Source: Gammaproteobacteria bacterium (GTDB lineage: Bacteria; Pseudomonadota; Gammaproteobacteria; Natronospirales; JAIVGZ01). From it: 64,000 bases of DNA. The stretch spans positions 556,437-620,436 of the forward strand of contig JBBEAN010000008.1 of assembly GCA_040882865.1 (NCBI GenBank), written 5' to 3'. Shown in pieces: positions 22,350-62,198 of the stretch. A program made the translations under genes and the position numbers. A model generated the notes under the pieces. It ran no database searches and was not told the DNA's origin. It was given only the letters and a program-made list of their open reading frames with translations. Every line of letters starts with the position of its first letter. The first letter of the stretch is position 1.

Positions 22350-23098
22350 GCGACGGGCTCCGCGACGCTCAGCGCGAGCTTGAGGTCGTCCCACGCGCGG
22401 CGCTTCTGTCCCGGTGATCGCAGCAGGTACGCCGGGTGATACGTTGCGACAAGCGGTGTTTCTCGCGTGCCATACCGATGCACGGTGCCGCGCAGTTTGC
22501 CGATTGGCTGGTCGCTTGCGAGCAGCGTCTGCGCGGCGATGCGGCCCACGACGAGAATGAGTTCGGGTTCCACGAGCGCGATTTGGCGATCCAGGAATGC
22601 ACGGCACGCCGTGAGCTCATCAGACTTCGGGTCGCGGTTGTCGGGCGGCCGGCACTTGAGCGTGTTCGCGATGTACACGCGCTCACGCGGCGCGCCCGCG
22701 GCCGCGAGCATCGCATTGAGGAGTTGCCCGGCGCGACCGACGAACGGCTCGCCTTGGCGATCCTCCTCCGCGCCCGGCGCCTCACCCACAAGCATCCAAC
22801 GCGCGTTGCGATCGCCCGTGCCGAATACGGTTTGCGTGCGGCTTCGGTGGAGGTCGCAGGCGGTGCAGGTGGAGACGGTTTGCTGGAGGGTGTCCCAATC
22901 GAGGGTCGAGGCATCGGCGAGTTCGCGGCGCGAAGGCGCCGCTCCAACAGGGGCTGGTGGTGACTCGGGCACATCGCGGCGCAAAGGCGCCGCTCCTACA
23001 GGTGTCGACTCCGGTAATGGCGCCGCTCCTACAATCGGTGGCCTGACATAGAGCTGAACACCGAGGGCGTCGAGGTAGTGGCGGCGCCGCGCGTCCAC
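22346..23098 (-). CDS. uracil-DNA glycosylase, family 4, with REP-derived N-terminal linker
   Basis: Motif A GEAPGAEED, motif B HPAYLLR, Cys cluster (CTACDL...), N-terminal YLDALGVQLY motif. GTG start. Confidence 0.85.
   Translation of the reverse strand: MDARRRHYLDALGVQLYVRPPIVGAAPLPESTPVGAAPLRRDVPESPPAPVGAAPSRRELADASTLDWDTLQQTVSTCTACDLHRSRTQTVFGTGDRNARWMLVGEAPGAEEDRQGEPFVGRAGQLLNAMLAAAGAPRERVYIANTLKCRPPDNRDPKSDELTACRAFLDRQIALVEPELILVVGRIAAQTLLASDQPIGKLRGTVHRYGTRETPLVATYHPAYLLRSPGQKRRAWDDLKLALSVAEPVA
22922..23036 (+). repeat. REP elements x2.5 (orientation A), in frame inside the UDG gene
   Basis: 22922-22953 TTCGCGGCGCGAAGGCGCCGCTCCAACAGGGG. 22973-23004 ATCGCGGCGCAAAGGCGCCGCTCCTACAGGTG. 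Half copy at 23019-23036 GGCGCCGCTCCTACAATC. The 51-nt period equals 17 codons. Confidence 0.9.
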
Positions 23099-31701: not shown

Positions 31702-31731
31702 AATCGCGACGCCGAGAGCGTCGCTCCTACA
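31702..31731 (+). repeat. REP element, orientation A, stem variant GCGACGC/GCGTCGC
   Basis: AATCGCGACGCCGAGAGCGTCGCTCCTACA. Abuts the LysM stop codon (TTA 31732-34 on the + strand). Confidence 0.9.
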
Positions 31732-33104: not shown

Positions 33105-33133
33105 ATCGCGACGCCAAGAGCGTCGCTCCCACA
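33105..33133 (+). repeat. REP element, orientation A, stem variant GCGACGC/GCGTCGC
   Basis: ATCGCGACGCCAAGAGCGTCGCTCCCACA. Ends directly at ATG 33134 of the next gene. Confidence 0.9.
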
Positions 33134-37518: not shown

Positions 37519-38246
37519 TTGTAGGAGCGGCGCTTGTGGGAGCGGCGCTCTACGCCGCGATGCCAACGCATGCAACTCCACGGGACGCCGGCCCGTCGCT
37601 CACGCCGTTCGAAGCGACCTACACCGTCACGCGCGGACATATTCGCCTCGGCGAGATGAGCGCGACGCTGCACGCGCCTGTCGACGGTGTGTGGCGCTAT
37701 CACTCGCATTCTGAGACGAGCGGCTTCGTGGCGATGTTCCGCCAGATCACGATCGACGAGCAGTCGACGTTCCGAATGGAGCAGGGCCGCCCCGTTCCAC
37801 TCGCGCACGAATATCGCATGGGCGGAAGCCGCAAGAATCGTGACTTCTCCTTGGCGTTCGACTGGGTCGCACGGGAAGTCCACGGCGTCGTTCGCGGCGA
37901 GACAGTCACTGAACCCCTGGGGCCCGGCGCGATTGACCGGCACTCGGCGCCGCTATCGGTCGCGCTCGCAGCGGCCGGCGGACGCGCGTTCCCGTTCGAT
38001 GTCGTGATGGTCGATCGCGGCCGCACGCGCGAGTACGAGACGGCGCATCGTGGCGAGGAAACACTGAAGACCGATGCCGGTGAGATCGCGACCGTACGCG
38101 TGCTGCTCGTACGTAAAGACGAACCCGATCGCCAGTTCCGGTTCTGGTTCGCGCCGGCGCTCGATCATGTGCCCGTGCGCATCCAGAGCGTGGATGACGA
38201 CGGCAAGACCATCACGCTGCAGTTGAAGTCCTACACCCGCAGCTAG
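37503..38246 (+). CDS. DUF3108 domain protein
   Basis: Conserved position after purN. The beta-rich body is DUF3108-like. The N-terminus MYRGLIVGAALVGAALYAAMPTHA is encoded by REP sequence. Confidence 0.65.
   Translation: MYRGLIVGAALVGAALYAAMPTHATPRDAGPSLTPFEATYTVTRGHIRLGEMSATLHAPVDGVWRYHSHSETSGFVAMFRQITIDEQSTFRMEQGRPVPLAHEYRMGGSRKNRDFSLAFDWVAREVHGVVRGETVTEPLGPGAIDRHSAPLSVALAAAGGRAFPFDVVMVDRGRTREYETAHRGEETLKTDAGEIATVRVLLVRKDEPDRQFRFWFAPALDHVPVRIQSVDDDGKTITLQLKSYTRS
37507..37561 (-). repeat. composite REP (head fragment plus 1.5 copies, orientation B) spanning the purN stop and the DUF3108 start
   Basis: ATCGCGGCCTGATTGTAGGAGCGGCGCTTGTGGGAGCGGCGCTCTACGCCGCGATG. Confidence 0.85.
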
Positions 38247-38249
38247 CTC

Positions 38250-38337
38250 ATTCGCGACGCCAAGAGCGTCGCTCCCACCTGAAGCTGCCGAACCTTCTGC
38301 AAGAACAGGTGGGAGCGACGCTCTTGGCGTCGCGATT
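38250..38337. repeat. REP doublet (REPIN-like), tail-to-tail, variant GCGACGC/GCGTCGC
   Basis: 38250-38281 ATTCGCGACGCCAAGAGCGTCGCTCCCACCTG. 38306-38337 CAGGTGGGAGCGACGCTCTTGGCGTCGCGATT. The arms match at 31/32 positions as reverse complements, with a 24-nt spacer. Lies between convergent genes. Confidence 0.9.
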
Positions 38338-43256: not shown

Positions 43257-43290
43257 AAATCGCGGCGCAAAGGCGCCGCTCCAACAGGTG
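43257..43290 (+). repeat. REP element, orientation A, intra-operon (rnfB-rnfC spacer)
   Basis: AAATCGCGGCGCAAAGGCGCCGCTCCAACAGGTG. Confidence 0.9.
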
Positions 43291-43295
43291 CCAGG

Positions 43296-44786
43296 ATGCA
43301 CGGCGGGTTGAAGCTTGAGCCGCACAAAGCCGAGTCAACGCGCGAGCCGATTCTGCGCGGCCCGCGTCCGAGCGAGCTCGTACTGCCGCTCGCACAGCAC
43401 ATGGGCGCCGCGGCGAAGGCGCGTGTCGCGGTCGGTGACCACGTCGCGCGCGGCCAGCCGCTTGCCGACGCCGACGGTTACCTGAGCGCGCCAGTGCATG
43501 CCCCTGCCTCAGGCACCGTTGTAGCCATCGAGCCGCGCCGCATCGCGCATCCGTCAGGCCTCGCGACGCCCTGCATCGTGCTCGAGACCGACGCCGCCGA
43601 CCATGACTGGGACGGCCTGCACGCGCACCCACAATGGCGCGACCTCACCCCCGAGCAGGTGCGAACGCTCGTGCGCGATGCCGGCATCGTCGGCCTCGGC
43701 GGCGCCGCGTTTCCGACCCACGTGAAACTCAATCCCGCGCTGACCGTCGACACGCTCGTCCTCAACGGCGCGGAGTGCGAGCCGTACATCAGCTGCGACG
43801 ACCGGCTGATGCGCGAGCGCGCGGCGCAGGTCGTCGCGGGTGCGGAGATCCTGCTGCACGCGCTGCAGGCAAAGCGGTGCGTGATCGCGATTGAGGAAGA
43901 CAAGCCAGAAGCGATCGCGGCCATCAAAACAGGAATCGCGGCGCAAAGGCGCCGCTCCAACACCAGCGACTTCGACCTGGCTTTGGAGGTGGTGCCTGCG
44001 ATTTACCCTCAGGGCGGCGAGCGGCAGTTGATTGCCACGGTGACGGGACGGCGGGTCCCGAGCGGCGGCTTACCGCTGAACGTCGGCGTCGTCTGCCACA
44101 ACGTCGCGACCGCGGCCGCGGTCGCCGCAGCGGTGCTGGACGGCGAGCCGCTCACGCGGCGCGTTGTCACCATGACCGGCGACGCGATGGCAGCACCGCG
44201 CAATGTCGACGCGCTGTACGGCACGCCCGTCTCAGCGCTCATCGCCGCGTGCGGTGGCTACGACGCGCCGGTGGACCGACTTGTAATGGGCGGTCCGATG
44301 ATGGGCTTCGCGCTGCCCGGCGACGACGTACCCGTCGTGAAGGCGATGAATTGCATCTTGGCGGAGTCCGATGCGATCGCGGCGCAAAGGCGCCGCTCCG
44401 TCAAACAGGTTCAGCCCTGCATTCGGTGTACGGCGTGTGAAGACGCGTGCCCGGCCGAGCTCCTGCCGCAGCAGCTGCACTGGTTCGCGCGCGCGCGGGA
44501 TTTCGACCAGGCCCGCGATCACGCGCTGTTCGATTGCATCGAATGCGGCGTCTGCGACGCCGTGTGTCCGAGCGACATACCGCTCGCCGCGCAGTTTCGC
44601 TGGGCGAAGGCAGAGATCCGCGCGCGCGATGACGAACGCAGTCGCGCCGAGCTCGCGAAACACCGCTTCGAGGCGCGCGCGCAGCGCCTCGCTGACGAGA
44701 AGCGCGAGCGCGAAGAACGCTTGAAGAAGAAACAGGACCCCGCCGCCATCGAAGCAGCGCTCGCACGCGTGAAGGCGAGCCGATGA
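43296..44786 (+). CDS. rnfC: electron transport complex subunit RnfC/RsxC
   Basis: GLGGAAFPTHVKL, NGAECEPYISCDDRLM, and two 4Fe-4S motifs (CIRCTACEDACP, CIECGVCDAVCP). ATG 43296 is preferred. The GTG at 43239 would read through the REP. Confidence 0.9.
   Translation: MHGGLKLEPHKAESTREPILRGPRPSELVLPLAQHMGAAAKARVAVGDHVARGQPLADADGYLSAPVHAPASGTVVAIEPRRIAHPSGLATPCIVLETDAADHDWDGLHAHPQWRDLTPEQVRTLVRDAGIVGLGGAAFPTHVKLNPALTVDTLVLNGAECEPYISCDDRLMRERAAQVVAGAEILLHALQAKRCVIAIEEDKPEAIAAIKTGIAAQRRRSNTSDFDLALEVVPAIYPQGGERQLIATVTGRRVPSGGLPLNVGVVCHNVATAAAVAAAVLDGEPLTRRVVTMTGDAMAAPRNVDALYGTPVSALIAACGGYDAPVDRLVMGGPMMGFALPGDDVPVVKAMNCILAESDAIAAQRRRSVKQVQPCIRCTACEDACPAELLPQQLHWFARARDFDQARDHALFDCIECGVCDAVCPSDIPLAAQFRWAKAEIRARDDERSRAELAKHRFEARAQRLADEKREREERLKKKQDPAAIEAALARVKASR
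43933..43964 (+). repeat. REP element, orientation A, in frame inside rnfC
   Basis: GAATCGCGGCGCAAAGGCGCCGCTCCAACACC, translated as (G)IAAQRRRSNT. Confidence 0.9.
44375..44410 (+). repeat. REP element, orientation A, in frame inside rnfC
   Basis: GATCGCGGCGCAAAGGCGCCGCTCCGTCAAACAGGT, translated as AIAAQRRRSVKQV. Confidence 0.9.
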
Positions 44787-50855: not shown

Positions 50856-51547
50856 ACTGTCTCGAGTATCGGCGCACGCTGTTGGAGCGGCCCACCGACC
50901 CCGGTAGCGGCGCGCGCGAACACCAGCTCGCGTGTCGCGCCTGCGCCGACTGGACAACCCAGCAGCAACGGTTCGAACAGCGGCTCGCGTACGCCCTGTC
51001 CGTTCCGGTTCCCGAGGGCGTCGCCGAGCGCGTGATGCTGCACGCCGCCTGGCGCTCACCCCGTCCGCATTGGCAAACCATCGCCGCGACGGTCGCCGCC
51101 GTCACGCTCGGCGCACTACTTGCTATCCAGCTCGCCGACCAGCCGGTGCTCGCACAATCGGTGCTCACGCACGTGTACGACGAACCAGACCTGCTAATAC
51201 CGGGCAGCGAGCCCGTCGATCCCGCACGACTGAAGGCGGTGCTGGAGCGCGTTGGCGGCACACTCGACGGCACAATCGGTTCGGTGCTGCACGCGGGACT
51301 TTGCCCGGTCGGCGGCAAACTCGCCGCGCACCTCGTCGTCGCTGGTGAACACGGACCGATTGCGGTGCTCGTGATGCCGGAATACGGCGTCGCGACAAAC
51401 ACAGCCGTCGGTGACGACAAGCTGCACGGCGCAATCGTGCCGGTTGGCCGTGGCAGCGTCGCGGTCATCGGTTTCCGTGGAGAATCGCTTGATGTGCTCG
51501 CAGAGCGCGTGCGCACTCAACTAAGTATCGCTGACCATGGCGCTTGA
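50852..51547 (+). CDS. anti-sigma factor (zinc-binding HxxxCxxC, single TM; DUF3379-like)
   Basis: MNCLEYRRTLL...EHQLACRAC (H-x3-C-x2-C), TM helix WQTIAATVAAVTLGALLAIQL, and a periplasmic C-domain. ATGA overlap with the sigma gene. Confidence 0.8.
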   Translation: MNCLEYRRTLLERPTDPGSGAREHQLACRACADWTTQQQRFEQRLAYALSVPVPEGVAERVMLHAAWRSPRPHWQTIAATVAAVTLGALLAIQLADQPVLAQSVLTHVYDEPDLLIPGSEPVDPARLKAVLERVGGTLDGTIGSVLHAGLCPVGGKLAAHLVVAGEHGPIAVLVMPEYGVATNTAVGDDKLHGAIVPVGRGSVAVIGFRGESLDVLAERVRTQLSIADHGA

Positions 51548-51932
51548 CCCACGACTCGCGGCGGACACGCTGTCCGTTGCGCAACTCCCGCTTTGCAGTG
51601 TGCGGCTGATGAATGACGCGCGTTACCCGTGGATCATCCTGGTTCCGCGCGTCGAGGATGCCGTCGAGCTGCTCGACCTCTCGGATGCCGACCAACAGCG
51701 CCTATACGACGAAATCAGGCAGTGCGCGCGCGTGCTACAGGAACACACAAGCGCCGACAAACTGAACATCGCTGCCCTCGGTAACGTCGTGCGCCAGCTG
51801 CACGTCCACGTCGTCGCGCGCTTTCACGACGACGACGCGTGGCCGAAGCCGGTCTGGGGCGTGCACCCGGCGGTCCCCTATGAGGACGACGCCGCGGCAA
51901 CGCTGATTCAGGCGCTGGCGACGCGCCTATGA
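51537..51932 (+). CDS. HIT family hydrolase
   Basis: Histidine triad QLHVHVVARF. 131 aa. Overlaps the anti-sigma gene by 11 nt. Confidence 0.8.
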   Translation: MALDPRLAADTLSVAQLPLCSVRLMNDARYPWIILVPRVEDAVELLDLSDADQQRLYDEIRQCARVLQEHTSADKLNIAALGNVVRQLHVHVVARFHDDDAWPKPVWGVHPAVPYEDDAAATLIQALATRL

Positions 51933-52013
51933 ATCGCGGCGCGAAGGCGCCGGCCTATTCGCGGCGCAAAGGCGCCGTTTATTCGCGGCGCAAAGGCGCC
52001 GCTCCTACAGTTG
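51931..52013 (+). repeat. three tandem REP units (orientation A), 24-26-nt period
   Basis: GAATCGCGGCGCGAAGGCGCCGGCCT / ATTCGCGGCGCAAAGGCGCCGTTT / ATTCGCGGCGCAAAGGCGCCGCTCCTACAGTTG. Only the last unit keeps the CTCCTACAG tail. The array begins inside the HIT stop codon (TGA 51930-32). Confidence 0.9.
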
Positions 52014-54586: not shown

Positions 54587-54618
54587 CAGGTGGGAGCGAC
54601 GCTCTTGGCGTCGCGAAT
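54587..54618 (-). repeat. REP element, orientation B, stem variant GCGACGC/GCGTCGC
   Basis: CAGGTGGGAGCGACGCTCTTGGCGTCGCGAAT. Ends 2 nt before the lpdA stop codon. Confidence 0.9.
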
Positions 54619-54620
54619 CA

Positions 54621-56375
54621 TCACAAATCCGTCAGCGTCCCCGCGAACGCTTCCGCCGAGAAGGCCACCGTCTCCGACAGCGTCGGGTGGGGGTGGATCA
54701 CAAGGCCGATGTCGTGCGCATCCGCGCCCATCTCGATCGCGAGCACCGCTTCTGAAATGAGATCGCCCGCGTTCGGGCCGACGATGCCCGCGCCGATCAC
54801 GCGTCCGGTCTTTTCATCGAACAGCAACTTGCTGAACCCGTCCTGCGCGTCGAGCGCGAGCGCACGACCGCTCGCCGCCCACGGGAAGCGGCCCTTGCCG
54901 ACCTTGATGCCTTTCTGTTTGGCTTCGGTCTCGGTCATGCCGCACCACGCGACCTCCGGGTCGGTATATGCGACCGACGGAATCACGCGCGCGTCGAACG
55001 CCGATTTTTGGCCGGCGGTGACTTCCGCCGCGACTTTCGCTTCGTGCGTCGCCTTGTGCGCGAGCATCGGATTGCCGGCGACGTCGCCGATCGCGAAGAT
55101 GTTCGGCTGGTTCGTGCGCATCTGTTCGTCCACGGGGATGAAGCCGCGGTCGTCGACCGTGACGCCAGCCGCGTCCGCGCCAAGGCCGCGCCCGTTCGGC
55201 TTGCGTCCGATGGCAACGAGTACACGGTCGAAGGTCTGAGATTCCGGCGCGTCCTTGCCGTCGAACGACACCGCGATGCCGCCTTTTTTCGCCTCGAGTT
55301 TCGCGACTTTCGTCGAGAGCCAGATGGCTTCGCACTTCGACTCGAGGCGCTTCTGGAGCACCTTCACGAGGTCGCGGTCGGTTCCCGGCATCAGTCCATC
55401 GGAAAGCTCCACGACACTGACTTTCGTACCCAGCGCCGCGTACACCGTCGCCATTTCGAGCCCGATGATGCCGCCGCCGACCACGAGCAGGCTCGCCGGC
55501 ACATCCTCGAGCGCGAGCGCGCCGGTGGAGTCGATGATGCGCGGGTCTTCGGGCGCACCCGGGAGCTTCACGACGGACGAACCGGCCGCGATGATCGCGT
55601 GCTCGAAATGGATGAGTTCGTTCTTGTCGCCCTCGACCGCGAGGTGATTCGCGTCCTTGAAGCGGCCGACGCCGGTCACGACCGATACCTTGCGTTTTTT
55701 CGCGAGCGCCTTGAGCCCGCCCGTGAGCTGACCGACCACGCCGTCCTTGAACCCGCGCAGCTTTTCGAGGTCGAGCTTCGGCTCACCGAATGAAACGCCG
55801 TGCGTGCCGAGCGTCTCGACTTCCGCCATCACGCGCGCGACGTGCAGCAATGCTTTCGACGGGATGCAGCCCACGTTCAGGCATACGCCGCCGAGCGTCG
55901 GGTAGCGCTCGACCAATATGACTTTCTTGCCGAGGTCGGCTGCGCGGAACGCCGCGGTATAGCCGCCGGGGCCGGCGCCGAGGACCAGCACATCGCACGC
56001 CAACGTGGTGTCCTTACGGGTGGGAGCGGCGCTCTGCGCCGCGATTGGCTCGGATTTCTCCGGCGCCGGTTTTTCCTCGCGGCGCGAAGGCGCCGCTCCT
56101 GCATCCAGGTCACCTGTAGGAGCGGCACCTTCGTGCCGCGATCCGTCAGAAGCTTCGAGCTCGGCAATCTCGCTGCCCTGCGACACCTTGTCGCCGGCCT
56201 TGACCAGGAGCTTCGTGACTTTACCGGCGTGGGTCGATGGCACGTCCATCGCAGCCTTGTCGGTCTCGATGGTGATCAGGCCCTGCTCGGCCTCGACCGA
56301 TTCGCCTTCGGCGACCAGCACCTCGATGACCTCGACGTCCGAGAAATTCCCGATGTCGGGAACGAGAATTTTCAT
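54621..56375 (-). CDS. lpdA: dihydrolipoyl dehydrogenase (E3) with N-terminal lipoyl domain
   Basis: Lipoyl domain (ITIETDKAAMDVPS), FAD site LVLGAGPGGY, redox disulfide CLNVGCIPSK, and HPHPTLSE. 584 aa. Confidence 0.9.
   Translation of the reverse strand: MKILVPDIGNFSDVEVIEVLVAEGESVEAEQGLITIETDKAAMDVPSTHAGKVTKLLVKAGDKVSQGSEIAELEASDGSRHEGAAPTGDLDAGAAPSRREEKPAPEKSEPIAAQSAAPTRKDTTLACDVLVLGAGPGGYTAAFRAADLGKKVILVERYPTLGGVCLNVGCIPSKALLHVARVMAEVETLGTHGVSFGEPKLDLEKLRGFKDGVVGQLTGGLKALAKKRKVSVVTGVGRFKDANHLAVEGDKNELIHFEHAIIAAGSSVVKLPGAPEDPRIIDSTGALALEDVPASLLVVGGGIIGLEMATVYAALGTKVSVVELSDGLMPGTDRDLVKVLQKRLESKCEAIWLSTKVAKLEAKKGGIAVSFDGKDAPESQTFDRVLVAIGRKPNGRGLGADAAGVTVDDRGFIPVDEQMRTNQPNIFAIGDVAGNPMLAHKATHEAKVAAEVTAGQKSAFDARVIPSVAYTDPEVAWCGMTETEAKQKGIKVGKGRFPWAASGRALALDAQDGFSKLLFDEKTGRVIGAGIVGPNAGDLISEAVLAIEMGADAHDIGLVIHPHPTLSETVAFSAEAFAGTLTDL
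56016..56046 (-). repeat. REP element, orientation B, 3-nt loop, in frame inside lpdA
   Basis: ACGGGTGGGAGCGGCGCTCTGCGCCGCGATT. Sense-strand translation IAAQSAAPTR. Confidence 0.9.
56075..56144. repeat. REP doublet (tail-to-tail, no spacer) in frame inside lpdA
   Basis: 56075-56110 CCTCGCGGCGCGAAGGCGCCGCTCCTGCATCCAGGT (orientation A). 56111-56144 CACCTGTAGGAGCGGCACCTTCGTGCCGCGATCC (orientation B, stem variant GCGGCAC/GTGCCGC). Sense-strand translation GSRHEGAAPTGDLDAGAAPSRRE. Confidence 0.9.
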
Positions 56376-56378
56376 AGC

Positions 56379-56447
56379 GAATCGCGGCGCAAAGGCGCCG
56401 CTCGTACAACTCTGGCACCTGTAGGAGCGGCGCCTTTGCGCCGCGAC
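56379..56447. repeat. REP doublet (REPIN-like), tail-to-tail, 5-nt spacer, aceF-lpdA intergenic
   Basis: GAATCGCGGCGCAAAGGCGCCGCTCGTACAAC-tctgg-CACCTGTAGGAGCGGCGCCTTTGCGCCGCGAC. Confidence 0.9.
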
Positions 56448-56454
56448 AAGCCGC

Positions 56455-57735
56455 TCATAGCACCAACCCTTCGACGTCGTGCAAGACTTTCGCCAAGTGC
56501 GTCGTGAACCGCGCAGCGGCCGCGCCGTCGATCACGCGATGGTCGTACGACAGCGACAGCGGCAGCATGAGCCGCGGCTTGAAGTCGTCGCCGTCCCACA
56601 CGGGCTTCATCTGCGACTTCGACACGCCGAGGATCGCGACTTCGGGCGCGTTCACGATCGGCGTGAACGCGGTGCCGCCGATACCGCCGAGGCTCGACAC
56701 CGAGAAGGTACCGCCCTGCATGTCCTTCGCTTTGAGTTTCTTGTCGCGCGCCTTGCCGCTGATCTCGCCGAGTTCCTTCGCGATGTCGAAGACGTTCTTC
56801 TTGTCCGCGTCGCGGATGACCGGTACGACGAGACCCTCGGGGGTGTCGACCGCGAAGCCGATGTGGAAGTACTGCTTCACGATGAGCTGGTCACCGTCGA
56901 GCGACGAATTGAAGCGCGGGAATTCCTTCAGCGTCAGCGCACACGCCTTGATGATGAACGCGAGCGGCGTGAGCTTCGCGCCGAGCTTCTCCGCGTCGGC
57001 CTTCAGCGACTGGCGCACCGTTTCCATATCGGTGATGTCCGCTTCGTCGTGCTGCGTGACGTGCGGAATCGTCGCCCACGCGCGCTGCAGGTGCGGCCCG
57101 GCGATTTTCTGGATGCGCGTGAGCAGCTCGGCCTCGACCGGCCCCCACTGCGAGAAATCGATGCGCGGCGCGGGCTCGAACGACGGGCCGCCCATACCGC
57201 CGCCCTGCATCACGCCCTTCACGAACGCTTTCACGTCGTCGTGGGTGATACGGCCTTTTTTTGCGCTGCCGTTGACGCGCGTGAGGTCGACGCCGAGTTC
57301 GCGCGCAAGTTTGCGGACCGATGGTGACGCGTGGGGTGGCGTGCCGTCAGCGCGGCGGCTGGGCGCCGGTTCCTGTTCGCGGTGCGAAGGCGCCGCTCCT
57401 ACAGGTGGCTCCGAAGGCGCGCCTTTTTCTTCGCGGCGCGAAGGTGCAGGTTCCTTTTCGCGGCGCGAAGGCGCCGCTCCTACATCTTGCTTCTCGGTGG
57501 CTTCGATCTCCGCGATCGGCGTGCCTTCGGAGACCTTGTCGCCGGCCTTCACGAGCAGCTTCGTGATCTTGCCCGCGTGCGTCGACGGCACGTCCATCGC
57601 GGCCTTGTCGGTTTCGATGGTGATGAGGCCGTCCTCGACCGCGACGGTGTCGCCCTCGGCGACCATGACTTCGATGACTTCGACGCCCTCGAAGTTACCG
57701 ATATCGGGGACCTTGATCTGGACCGTGTCAGACAT
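56455..57735 (-). CDS. aceF: dihydrolipoamide acetyltransferase (E2), single lipoyl domain
   Basis: Lipoyl domain (ITIETDKAAMDVPS), E3-binding domain (SPSVRKLARELGVDLTRVNGSAKKGRI), and catalytic SLSYDHRVIDGA. Confidence 0.9.
   Translation of the reverse strand: MSDTVQIKVPDIGNFEGVEVIEVMVAEGDTVAVEDGLITIETDKAAMDVPSTHAGKITKLLVKAGDKVSEGTPIAEIEATEKQDVGAAPSRREKEPAPSRREEKGAPSEPPVGAAPSHREQEPAPSRRADGTPPHASPSVRKLARELGVDLTRVNGSAKKGRITHDDVKAFVKGVMQGGGMGGPSFEPAPRIDFSQWGPVEAELLTRIQKIAGPHLQRAWATIPHVTQHDEADITDMETVRQSLKADAEKLGAKLTPLAFIIKACALTLKEFPRFNSSLDGDQLIVKQYFHIGFAVDTPEGLVVPVIRDADKKNVFDIAKELGEISGKARDKKLKAKDMQGGTFSVSSLGGIGGTAFTPIVNAPEVAILGVSKSQMKPVWDGDDFKPRLMLPLSLSYDHRVIDGAAAARFTTHLAKVLHDVEGLVL
57345..57486 (+). 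repeat. four to five REP-derived units (orientation A), in frame inside aceF
   Basis: 57375-57408 GTTCGCGGTGCGAAGGCGCCGCTCCTACAGGTGG. 57429-57450 CTTCGCGGCGCGAAGGTGCAGG. 57456-57486 TTTCGCGGCGCGAAGGCGCCGCTCCTACATC. A degenerate unit lies at 57345-57373. Confidence 0.85.
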
Positions 57736-60412
57736 CGGCGTGCGTGGCCTTCAACGGCGACGCCTTGTCGGCATCGATCCGATATTTCGTCATGGCCTCG
57801 GTCACGGTCTTCATCGAGATCGTGCCGTCGTCCGCGAGCGCGCGCAGCGCCGCGATCGTGATCCAGCGGCGGTCGACCTCGAAGAAGTGCCTCAGCTGTT
57901 CGCGCGAATCGCTACGACCGAAGCCGTCGGTGCCGAGCACCGTGTAGCGACCACGCACCCACGGTCGGACCTGGTCGGCGACCGCGCGCATATAGTCGGT
58001 CGCAGCAACCACCGGCCCGTCGGTGTCATCGAGGCACTCGGCGACGTACGCGCGCTGTGGGGTCTTCGCGCCGGGGTTCAACAGATTCCAACGGTCGGCT
58101 GCGATGCCGTCGCGGCGCAGTTCATTGAAACTCGTCGCACTCCAGACGTCGGCTTCGACGCCCCAGTCGTCGCGCAGCCATTCGGCCGCGGCGATGACTT
58201 CGCGCAGGATGGTGCCGCTGCCGAGCAACTGCACGCGGGCCTTCGCTTTCTTCTTGCCCTCGCTGAATCGATACAGGCCCTTGAGGATGCCGGGCGCCGC
58301 GCCGTCGGGCATCGCCGGATGCGTGTAATTCTCGTTCATCATCGTGATGTAATAGAAAACGTTCTCGTAATCGGTGTACATGCGGCGCAAGCCGTCATGG
58401 ATGATCACCGCAAGTTCGTACGCGAACGTCGGGTCGTAGCTGATGCAGTTCGGAACCGTTGACGACAACAAGTGACTGTGGCCGTCCTGATGCTGCAGGC
58501 CCTCGCCGTTCAGCGTCGTGCGGCCGGCGGTCCCGCCGAGCAGGAAGCCACGCGCGCCCGCGTCGCCAGCGGCCCACGCGAGGTCGCCGATGCGCTGGAA
58601 GCCGAACATCGAATAGAACAGGAAGAACGGAATCGTCGGCACGCCGTGGTTCGCGTACGCGGTCGCCGCGGCGATCCACGAACTCATCGAGCCGGCTTCT
58701 GTGATGCCCTCCTGCAGTATCTGCCCGTCCTTGCTCTCCTTGTAGAACATCAGCTGGTCGGCGTCCTGCGGCGTGTAAAGCTGGCCTTGCGACGAATAGA
58801 TGCCGAGTTGGCGGAACATGCCTTCCATGCCGAAAGTCCGTGCCTCGTCCGGCACGATCGGCACGATGTACTTGCCGACCTTCTTGTCCTTCAGCAGCGC
58901 GTTCAGGATGCGCACGACCGCCATCGTCGACGAGATCTCGCGATCACCGCTCGATTCGAGTTGCGACTTGAACAGCTCGAGCGACGGCATCTCGAGCGAA
59001 GGCTTCTCGGTGCTGCGCGCGGGCAGATAGCCGCCGAGCTTCTCGCGCTGTTCCTGCAGGTATTTGAGCTCCGGGCTGTCGTCGGCCGGCTTGCAGAACG
59101 GGATGCTCGCGATCTGGTCGTCGCTGACGGGGATGTTGAAGCGGTCGCGGAATGCCTTCAGCGCGTCCTCGTCCATTTTCTTGGATTGATGCGCCGTGTT
59201 CTGGCCTTCACCTGCGGCACCCATGCCGAAGCCCTTCACCGTCTTCGCGAGGATGACGGTCGGCTGGCCGGTATGCTCCATCGCGGCCTTGTATGCAGTA
59301 TTCACTTTGCGCGCGTCGTGCCCGCCGCGGTTCAGGCGCCAGATTTCCTCGTCGCTCATGTTCGCGACCATTTCTTTCAGCTCGGGATATTTGCCGAAGA
59401 AATTCTCGCGCGTGTACGCACCGCCCTTCGCCTTGTAGTTCTGGTACTCGCCGTCGACGGATTCTTCCATCACACGGCGCAATTGGCCGAGTCGGTCACG
59501 CTCGAGCAGCGGGTCCCAACGCGAGCCCCACAGCACCTTGATGACGTTCCAGCCGGAACCGCGGAAGCTCGCTTCGAGTTCCTGGATGATCTTGCCGTTG
59601 CCGCGCACCGGGCCGTCGAGCCGCTGCAGGTTGCAGTTCACGACGAAGACAAGGTTATCGAGGCCTTCGCGACCGGCGAGGCTCGTCGCGCCGAGTGATT
59701 CCGGCTCGTCCATTTCACCATCGCCGAGGAACGCCCACACTTTGCGCTTCGAGGTGTCGGAAAGTCCGCGGTGCTCGAGGTAGCGCATGAATCGCGCTTG
59801 GTAGATCGCCATGATCGGCCCAAGCCCCATCGATACCGTCGGGAATTGCCAGAAGTTCGGCATGATCCACGGGTGCGGATACGACGTGATGCCCTTGCCG
59901 TCGACGTCTTCGCGGTAATGCGCGAGCTGCTCGCGCGTGAGACGCCCTTCGAGGAACGCGCGCGCGTAGATACCGGGCGAACTGTGGCCCTGGATGTAGA
60001 CGAGGTCGCCGCCGTGTTCATCGGACGGCGCGTGCCAGTAATGGTTGAAGCCGACTTCGTACAGGATCGCTGACGACGCGTAGGTGGAGATATGCCCCCC
60101 GAGGTCCGTGCCCTTACGGTTCGCGTGCACGACCATCGCCATCGCGTTCCAGCGGATGTACGCCTCGATACGCTTCTCGAGTTCGCGGTTCCCGGGGTAC
60201 TGCGCGTCGAGGTGCGGCGGAATCGTGTTCACGTAAGCGGTGTTCTGCGAGAACGGCAGGTGGGTGCCCTCGCGGCGCGCGCGGTCAATCAATTGCTCGA
60301 GCAGGAAGTGGGCGCGCTCGGGGCCTTCGACCGCGAGGACGGCTTCCATCGCATCCAGCCACTCACGGGTTTCGGTCGGGTCGGTGTCGCGCGCTGTGCG
60401 TTCGTCTGCCAT
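57728..60412 (-). CDS. aceE: pyruvate dehydrogenase E1 component (homodimeric type)
   Basis: 894 aa. N-terminus [18 protein letters not shown], ThDP motif region [10 protein letters not shown]. 8-nt overlap with aceF. Confidence 0.95.
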
Positions 60413-62158: not shown

Positions 62159-62187
62159 CAGGTGGGAGCGGCGCTCTGCGCCGCGAT
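62159..62187 (-). repeat. REP element, orientation B, 3-nt loop
   Basis: CAGGTGGGAGCGGCGCTCTGCGCCGCGAT. Lies 12 nt upstream of the pyrC ATG. Confidence 0.9.
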
Positions 62188-62198
62188 AGGGGCTTATA

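Follow-up and report, generated by a model that had tools for sequence, protein, structure and literature searches.

REP DNA in frame in the inter-domain linker of a gammaproteobacterial dihydrolipoyl dehydrogenase

Introduction

Can a short repeat that normally lies between genes become protein sequence within a central metabolic enzyme, and where in the protein would it be accommodated? The question is raised by lpdA, the gene for dihydrolipoyl dehydrogenase (E3), in a 64,000-nucleotide stretch of contig JBBEAN010000008.1 (positions 556,437 to 620,436 of the forward strand; assembly GCA_040882865.1) from an uncultured gammaproteobacterial metagenome-assembled genome (MAG). This stretch is referred to below as the window, and positions are numbered from its first nucleotide. 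Repetitive extragenic palindromic (REP) elements are short hairpin-forming repeats, normally intergenic, that in other bacteria are mobilised or maintained by RAYT transposases. An earlier note on this DNA had proposed that the linker between the lipoyl and flavoprotein parts of LpdA is built from three REPs, two of them forming an inverted doublet. All three segments were found at the places proposed, and the LpdA linker is largely REP DNA in frame.

Results

A fused lipoyl-E3 protein with REPs in its linker

In the list of open reading frames (ORFs), the minus strand of 54621-60412 carries aceE (57728-60412), aceF (56455-57735) and lpdA (54621-56375). The features of lpdA on which the argument depends are as follows; nhmmer E-values were obtained with a subfamily-A profile built from intergenic copies only.

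54621..56375, minus strand: lpdA, dihydrolipoyl dehydrogenase (E3) with an N-terminal lipoyl domain, 584 amino acids, uninterrupted single ORF
56157..56369, minus strand: lipoyl domain (Pfam), residues 3-73, lipoyl-lysine motif ETDKAAMD
55995..56156, minus strand: inter-domain linker, residues 74-127, of which residues 77-121 are predicted to be disordered
56111..56142, plus strand: REP1, subfamily A, antisense to lpdA, read as SRHEGAAPTG; nhmmer E = 5.9e-8
56104..56110, unstranded: spacer between the doublet arms; with REP1 and flank, part of a 42-nt block absent in the relative L081
56077..56103, minus strand: REP2, subfamily A, sense, read as (A)GAAPSRRE; nhmmer E = 6.3e-7
56019..56046, plus strand: REP3, subfamily C (GGTGGGAGCGGCGCTCTGCGCCGCGAT), antisense, read as IAAQSAAPT; nhmmer E = 0.0096

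The lpdA gene model is sound and comprises one fused ORF. Pfam places Biotin_lipoyl at residues 3-73, Pyr_redox_2 at 128-446 and Pyr_redox_dim at 465-570, and the protein scores 511 bits against NCBIfam TIGR01350 (dihydrolipoyl dehydrogenase; cut-off 408.8). The lipoyl-lysine motif ETDKAAMD, the redox-active CLNVGCIPSK and the C-terminal HPHPTLSE can all be read from the sequence, D39, K40 and A41 of the lipoyl domain being invariant in alignment A2; with its DKA lysine, linker, CxxxxC motif and C-terminal His-Glu, LpdA is a lipoyl-domain E3 of the P64k type. The top match in the Protein Data Bank is 5u25, a 602-residue dihydrolipoamide dehydrogenase chain aligned over residues 3-584, and two Neisseria P64k entries, 1ojt and 1bhy, also match, over the E3 part. 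LpdA shares with these proteins the order of lipoyl domain, Ala/Pro-rich linker and E3, whereas the linker of ordinary members is plain Ala/Pro/charged sequence without repeat-element DNA. GC content at third codon positions (GC3) is 0.83 across the ORF, typical of coding DNA. The identical 584-residue protein is present in three NCBI MAG records (MEX0900417.1, MEX1273668.1 and MEX2360159.1), annotated as dihydrolipoyl dehydrogenase of an uncultured gammaproteobacterium, and the fused lipoyl-E3 architecture occurs in 120 of 120 homologues among the matches listed. The fusion assumed by the earlier note is thus borne out by the single ORF with its Pfam domains and by the three MAG records; separate lipoyl and E3 ORFs with the REPs in a gap between them, which that note had named as the finding that would overturn it, do not exist here, the ORF being continuous.

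Codon mapping assigned GSRHEGAAPTGD to residues 78-89 (56109-56144), AGAAPSRRE to residues 92-100 (56076-56102) and IAAQSAAPTR to residues 111-120 (56016-56045), in agreement with the segments proposed, and both REP orientations are in use, REP2 being sense and REP1 and REP3 antisense. The 22-nt REP core GGAGCGGCGCCTTCGCGCCGCG, which has the variable-position form GGAGCGGCGCCTT[C/T]GCGCCGCG and for which up to three mismatches were counted as a match, occurs without mismatch at 56078-56099 on the minus strand (REP2, CTTC form) and with two mismatches at 56119-56140 on the plus strand (REP1). The GTAG tag of REP2 has become GCAG in the window, while two close relatives, L081 and L001, keep GTAG at that place. 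The 5' end of REP1, CACCTGTAGG, is identical to that of intergenic copies, and it departs from the consensus by one G-to-A and one C-to-T change, which are complementary and give GCGGCAC...GTGCCGC with a perfect 7-bp stem. Selection may have preserved the hairpin through this compensatory pair, or the quasi-palindrome may have been corrected by template switching. REP3 is an exact 27/27 twin of an intergenic subfamily-C copy at 62161-62188, and its profile score is weak because it belongs to another subfamily than the profile. The count of three copies in the earlier note stands. REP3 is a member of subfamily C and not a decayed subfamily-A copy; a subfamily-A copy with a 1-nt deletion was ruled out by the exact twin. 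Six-frame translation of the REP gave a stop in the CTG-TAG frame only, leaving five frames open as had been claimed, and this openness accounts for the survival of such copies within a gene. The predicted tryptic peptide through the REP-coded doublet is HEGAAPTGDLDAGAAPSR. The copies lie wholly within a functional ORF of at least 120 residues and away from its N-terminus (residues 78-120 of 584), the setting by which intragenic REPs were recognised in a previous survey (Di Nocera, De Gregorio & Rocco 2013, BMC Genomics 14:522; PMC3733652).

The REP-coded residues coincide with the part of LpdA that is predicted to lack structure. In the AlphaFold2 model, based on a 15-sequence alignment, residues 77-121 have a predicted local distance difference test score (pLDDT) below 50 and no secondary structure, matching REP-coded residues 78-120. 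The lipoyl domain is modelled as a beta domain with strands to residue 75 (mean pLDDT of 72-91 in 10-residue blocks), and the FAD domain is modelled confidently from residue 123. The 54-residue linker (residues 74-127) contains 12 Ala, 6 Glu, 6 Pro and 5 Ser. Linkers of homologues are 30-55 residues long and rich in Ala, Pro, Glu and Lys without REPs, and the 47-residue stretch of LpdA compared with them falls within this range.

Doublet geometry and predicted hairpin

REP1 and REP2 form an inverted doublet with arms of 27 nt each (56077-56103 and 56115-56141) that are 89% complementary and separated by an 11-nt gap. A doublet of the same build lies in the aceF-lpdA spacer.

56381..56446, unstranded: intergenic REP doublet (REPIN-like) in the aceF-lpdA spacer, arms 56381-56411 (minus) and 56416-56446 (plus)

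Taken as 56382-56408 and 56420-56446, the arms of the intergenic doublet have the same length and gap, and over 65 nt the in-gene doublet (56077-56141) is 83% identical to 56382-56446, 305 nt away. Inverted REPs at a short, family-typical distance that fold into one long hairpin characterise a REPIN, and the in-gene doublet has each of these features. As mRNA it is predicted to fold at -52.4 kcal/mol (z = -7.15), and the intergenic doublet (56381-56446) as RNA at -63.5 kcal/mol. A scan of 55800-57800 showed no terminator-like or promoter-like features at the doublet, and the Rfam scan of the same interval returned only hairpin look-alikes far under gathering scores and no Rfam family. Of the two intergenic doublets with which the in-gene pair had previously been compared, that at 56379 does share its geometry, whereas that at 38250 belongs to subfamily B and has a longer spacer. 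The pair had also been described as tail-to-tail; it is an inverted doublet, with arms that in fact face each other by their GTAG ends.

Piecewise differences among close relatives

Relatives were searched among 5.8 billion protein clusters, and DNA was recovered as loci L081, L001 and L082-85. Apart from its own genome LpdA has only three close relatives there, at 89%, 88% and 82% identity, the next being at 68%. LpdA is 584 residues long in the window, 577 in L081, 583 in L001 and 566 in L082, and the linkers of the three relatives read as follows.

L081 linker: ASDVGAAPSRREEKAPAPEEKPAPEKSEPIAARSAAPTRKD
L001 linker: ASEGTAEPEKKDVGAAPSRREEKTPAPTQKESRREDAAPTAAKRND
L082 linker: AAPTKPVKAAEPAKSAEPVAAQSAAPTRDD

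The REP3 site is occupied in all four (the window, L081, L001 and L082), to 82% protein identity; in L001 the occupant is an A-type copy, 1 nt longer and read in the SRRE frame, with flanking indels that restore the frame. REP2 is shared by the window, L081 and L001 but is missing from L082. REP1 together with the spacer constitutes a clean 42-nt (14-residue) block that is found in the window genome only and is absent from L081, L001 and L082, the last of which (protein P0004) has neither REP1 nor REP2. No REPs were found in the linker of the 68% relative (P0006) or in those of 10 more distant homologues. Homologues without the insert, which mark the repeat as an addition to the gene instead of old coding sequence, exist both nearby, in L082 for REP1 and REP2, and further away. 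The differences among the linkers of the close relatives consist of REP-sized blocks, and the frame is kept in all four lineages.

Nucleotide identities of the E3 domain among the window, L081 and L001 are 0.871, 0.847 and 0.874, close to a trichotomy, and with three such nearly equidistant lineages either gain of REP1 or loss of a doublet arm could have occurred. Gain of REP1 in the window lineage is favoured over arm loss elsewhere as the more probable event, because REP1 has the canonical intergenic 5' end while REP2 has coding-type features, and because L001, whose other two REPs are near-perfect, has nothing recognisable as a REP at the REP1 position. Neither a clean target-site duplication nor microhomology was found for the 42-nt block; GGAT was considered as a flanking duplication and dropped, the two occurrences being 38 nt apart and not 42. 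The aceF-lpdA spacer also varies, with an A-type doublet in the window and in L001, a single B-type REP in L081 and no spacer in L082, where the genes overlap. The earlier suggestion that a whole REPIN-type unit had inserted into lpdA agrees with the geometry of the doublet but fits less well the stepwise history seen in the relatives. Its other suggestion, expansion from the neighbouring intergenic doublet, is no more than a possibility: the two doublets are 83% identical, their spacers differ and the intergenic spacer is itself unstable.

From one relative to another, the linker REP cores vary at 0-3 of 27 nt (P ~5e-5 to 6e-3) and REP2 at 0-1 of 27, whereas third codon positions of the E3 domain differ by 29-40% and the rest of the linker is indel-rich.

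The L001 contig, from the 88% relative, opens (positions 1-82) with the 5' end of lpdA repeated in inverted orientation at 88% identity; this repeat abuts the REP doublet and is either an assembler artefact at a palindrome or a true inverted duplication.

In-frame REPs in aceF and rnfC

Two further genes in the window contain REP sequence in frame.

57377..57484, minus strand: aceF linker (lipoyl to E3-binding domain), with three REP-derived units at 57377-57406, 57430-57446 and 57458-57484
43296-44786, plus strand: rnfC/rsxC, with two in-frame subfamily-A REPs at 43935-43962 and 44376-44409

The three aceF units are all sense and read as GAAPSRRE or PAPSRRE, the Pfam domains of AceF lying at residues 6-77 and 134-169. 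The number and type of REPs in this linker differ in L081 and L082, and L081 has a C-type unit, EPIAARSAAPT, that mirrors the one in lpdA. Sense copies of lpdA and aceF share GAT before GTAGG, a CTTC loop (encoding Ser in place of Leu) and AAG or AAA after the stem; most intergenic copies lack these features, although those at 22924 and 63244 also have the CTTC loop. Because the coding sense copies share derived features, copying between the lpdA and aceF linkers is a live alternative to transposition.

The REPs of rnfC are read as IAAQRRRS, a third frame that is unused in lpdA and aceF, and RnfC relatives at 86% and 75% identity differ from the window in each of the two REP loops. In the AlphaFold2 model of RnfC the first REP lies at a helix end and the loop that follows, and the second falls where the model has low confidence, ahead of the Fe-S domain. 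A third REP copy (43259-43290) is located in the rnfB-rnfC spacer, just upstream of the rnfC start chosen by PGAP. At the position of the window's REP loop (columns 220-240 of alignment A1), the RnfC relatives P0123 and P0125 have the motifs LANHRLAP and IASHRLAPTWHS, which might perhaps be translations of another REP family.

The REP family in the window

The 22-nt core was matched 16 times in the window against 0.04 expected from dinucleotide shuffles, none of which reached 16. Searches with the intergenic-only profile and fuzzy searches distinguished three subfamilies, A (CACCTGTAGGAGCGGCGCCTTTGCGCCGCGAT), B (GGTGGGAGCGACGCTCTTGGCGTCGCGA) and C (GGTGGGAGCGGCGCTCTGCGCCGCGAT), with about 25 copies in the 64 kb. 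Around 18 of these lie outside long coding ORFs, and about 7 are intragenic, within lpdA, aceF and rnfC; the repeats are thus multi-copy and mostly intergenic, as is usual for REPs. In extended subfamily-A copies a GTAG tag and a GAT tail accompany a 7-bp GC stem with a 4-nt loop, read from the sequence as GCGGCGC-CTTT-GCGCCGC. They are hairpin-forming palindromes in the REP size range of 20-40 nt, and REP3 likewise folds into a hairpin. About half of the A-type copies, REP1 among them, have TGTAGG, which places them with GTAG-type REPs, and most others have GTTG; subfamilies B and C, including REP3, have GTGG in place of the tag. The tail TGTAGGAGCGG...CCGCGA agrees with what we take to be the Pseudomonas putida REP.

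Other copies in the window are listed below.

54589..54616, plus strand: subfamily-B REP, 5 nt after the lpdA stop codon
54589-54616, 38252-38335, 33106-33133 and 31704-31730: subfamily-B copies (GGTGGGAGCGACGCTCTTGGCGTCGCGA)
62161..62188, plus strand: intergenic reference copy of subfamily C, identical to REP3

The copies form inverted doublets at two places, 38252/38308 (subfamily B) and 56381-56446 (subfamily A, in the aceF-lpdA spacer). Three direct tandem copies with a 25-nt period (51933-52013) directly follow a HIT-domain gene (51537-51932), two of the three lacking the GTAG end. At 37519-37561 a composite, TTGTAGGAGCGGCGCTTGTGGGAGCGGCGCTCTACGCCGCGAT, apparently consists of half a REP, from its 5' side, joined to an entire subfamily-C copy.

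When a collection of 241 million metagenome records was scanned, the REP 28-mer gave no match and the 22-nt core gave 16 single-copy matches, several within long ORFs of unrelated sequence; none of the 16 had a GTAG tail, and no RAYT was found with them. Bare GC-rich cores call for caution, and these matches are uninformative on host range.

Discussion

Intragenic REPs are already known, and LpdA is a clear new example. GTAG/CGTC REPs were surveyed by Di Nocera, De Gregorio & Rocco (2013), who reported intragenic copies in several species; more than half of these are dimers or grouped repeats encoding 20-30 residues, for which a location in flexible linkers or loops was suggested (PMC3733652). 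Additional file 3 of that survey includes Oter_4191 (2-oxoglutarate dehydrogenase E2) and Oter_4192 (dihydrolipoamide acetyltransferase) of O. terrae, and Sala_0526 and Sala_1235 (pyruvate dehydrogenase E1 and E2) of S. alaskensis are on the same intragenic-REP list (PMC3733652). The P. putida GTAG-1 peptides VGAGLPAK and FAGRPAPTG, also listed (PMC3733652), likewise derive from the TGTAGGAGCGG / CCTACAGG tail, in the two frames that give VGAAPSRR and SRHEGAAPTG here. Common to those proteins and LpdA are GTAG-tagged REPs, single or as inverted dimers, in frame within ORFs of known function. LpdA differs from them in host and host gene, an E3 of an uncultured gammaproteobacterial MAG, and in that three copies of two subfamilies build most of one linker. 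E3/LpdA was not found in the intragenic-REP list, a text search of the supplement for 'lipoamide' giving no match, and no paper dealing with REPs in lipoyl linkers was found in the literature searched, so that the sole precedent is the table in the supplement of PMC3733652.

As far as summarised in PMC3733652 and PMC3184786, palindromic repeats in frame within genes were first described in Rickettsia (Ogata et al. 2000, Science 290:347), where the Rickettsia palindromic element (RPE) family occurs in many functional genes at fold-compatible positions. RPEs are longer (~105-146 nt in the table of PMC3184786) and Rickettsia-restricted, whereas the units here are 27-32 nt, of the REP/GTAG type and mostly intergenic. 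Membership in the RPE family was accordingly rejected for these units of a gammaproteobacterial MAG, the analogy being one of outcome only. Closer in architecture is the REPIN/RAYT system, reportedly the subject of work by Bertels and Rainey in 2011 and Nunvar and colleagues in 2010 (cited through PMC5581495 and PMC3184786), which likewise has inverted doublets at fixed spacing, several subfamilies per genome and GTAG beside a 7-bp GC stem. From the GTAG tag and this architecture we infer that the repeats of the window probably belong to a RAYT-driven family. They differ from that system in that REPINs are described as extragenic, in that no RAYT was located in the 64 kb, and in that the lpdA doublet may have been assembled from a singlet instead of being moved whole.

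The interpretation preferred here, and held to be very probably correct, is that tolerated REP DNA in lpdA now serves as a generic flexible tether between the lipoyl and FAD/NAD domains. GTAG-type REP DNA would have come, by transposition or by copying, into the segment of lpdA that encodes this tether, where the absence of stops from five of six frames would let copies be read through and net length changes in multiples of three would keep the frame. The frames used (GAAPSRRE, SRHEGAAPTG and IAAQSAAPT) would supply small and charged residues resembling those of the native Ala/Pro/charged linker of a lipoyl arm, so that REP passengers, presumably neutral for the enzyme, would first have been tolerated and then have become the linker, acting as the tether of a swinging arm. 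The REP copies in lpdA are predicted from the ORF to be translated, and their frame is preserved in four lineages. The linker would have been rebuilt repeatedly by gain, loss or replacement of REPs, with its frame and a length of 30-55 residues retained, the 42-nt block being probably such a gain.

Several observations weigh against this interpretation. Pure nucleotide neutrality does not predict the conservation of the REP cores, which suggests either that other REP copies homogenise them or that they are constrained as DNA or RNA. The modelled mRNA hairpin of the in-gene doublet (-52.4 kcal/mol) may possibly not be harmless. No RAYT was detected in the 64-kb window by tblastn with an approximate E. 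coli RAYT sequence as query, a weak test (best E = 0.72), and the nine ORFs that adjoin REP clusters gave housekeeping Pfam domains unrelated to RAYT. REP homogenisation, linker-to-linker copying, selection on residues and hairpin constraint could all contribute to the conservation and to the features shared by coding copies.

As to how the doublet arose, insertion of a whole REPIN on a single occasion, followed by loss of the REP1 arm in the relatives, is unlikely, although the in-gene doublet, with 89% complementarity between its arms, has exactly the REPIN geometry of the intergenic one. The near-equidistance of the window, L081 and L001 would permit loss in two lineages, and MAFFT aligns TGCCGAGCCTGAAAAG of L001 to the REP1 tail. 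Such a history would require an exact 42-nt in-frame deletion in L081 and, in L001, decay past recognition beside near-perfect copies of REP2 and REP3; moreover the arms look like different lineages, REP1 having the canonical intergenic 5' end and REP2 coding-type features, and L082 has neither arm. Somewhat less likely again is an origin of REP2 by gene conversion or duplication of paralogous segments between the lpdA and aceF linkers instead of by transposition. Within one genome the lipoyl domains of the two genes have 77-85% DNA identity, the REP begins 3-7 residues after the domain end in both (EIEATEKQDVGAAPSRRE in aceF, ELEASDVGAAPSRRE in lpdA), the coding copies share GAT-GTAGG, the CTTC loop and 3' AAG or AAA, and aceF of L081 also has the C-type unit of lpdA. 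The paralogous domains are, however, less alike (0.77-0.85) than orthologues (0.81-0.93), so that there has been no recent long-tract conversion. The shared features could equally have been selected, with Ser preferred to Leu and charged residues favoured in the flanks, and the intergenic copies 22924 and 63244 also have the CTTC loop.

A function of the REPs as nucleic acid, whether in ribosome pausing for co-translational folding or lipoylation, as a site of RNase III/E processing or stabilisation or as a substrate of the REP machinery, is improbable as the reason for their retention. The hairpin is strong and non-random, the cores are conserved beyond third-position expectation and the compensatory double change keeps the REP1 stem, but relatives have one arm or none at that position, no terminator-like or promoter-like feature or Rfam family was found, and conservation and compensation are also expected from REP gene conversion and quasi-palindrome template switching. 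A wider proposal, that hairpin selection (for instance for a programmed pause or processing site separating the lipoyl from the catalytic domain) or continuing RAYT activity or gene conversion keeps the REPs of both the lpdA and aceF linkers at the nucleic-acid level and makes them a standing source of length-variable linker modules for 2-oxoacid dehydrogenase complexes, is doubtful too, if marginally less so; if true, the Verrucomicrobia and Alphaproteobacteria cases (PMC3733652) would reflect a general affinity of REPs for Ala/Pro linkers. An error in the gene model or assembly, with separate ORFs or misassembled repeats, is very improbable. The source is a MAG and REP palindromes do disturb assemblies, as the inverted lpdA 5' copy of L001 illustrates; against this stand the continuous ORF with its GC3 of 0.83, the fusion in all the listed homologues, the 5u25 alignment that spans both parts, the identical protein in three MAG records, and other samples, assembled independently, in which REP2 and REP3 occupy the same sites. 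Chance or convergence of GC-rich Ala/Pro codons has almost no claim to credence. The bare core does occur 16 times in the 241-million-record collection, several times in unrelated long ORFs, but matches in the window far exceed expectation and extend to the GTAG tail, the CACC flank and a 65-nt doublet of conserved geometry, REP3 has an exact 27-mer twin between genes, and homologues at 60-68% identity have Ala/Pro linkers lacking such sequence. The excess of cores, the doublet match and the REP3 twin effectively refute this reading.

To the known cases LpdA adds a linker made mostly of REPs from two subfamilies and a set of close relatives whose states can be ordered; the proportion of copies predicted to be translated is also high locally. 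For annotation and repeat masking, REPs are no sure sign of intergenic DNA, about a quarter of the copies in the window lying within genes and being predicted to be translated, and intragenic REP palindromes can break or invert metagenomic assemblies. The locus offers a clean and datable case of repeat DNA, whether selfish or structural, turning into part of a central metabolic enzyme; rebuilding of the linker block by block, with frame and length kept, is visible among close relatives. It supports the view that disordered inter-domain linkers are safe landing sites at which repeat DNA may be turned into coding sequence, and offers a mechanism by which the linkers of lipoyl arms may turn over rapidly.

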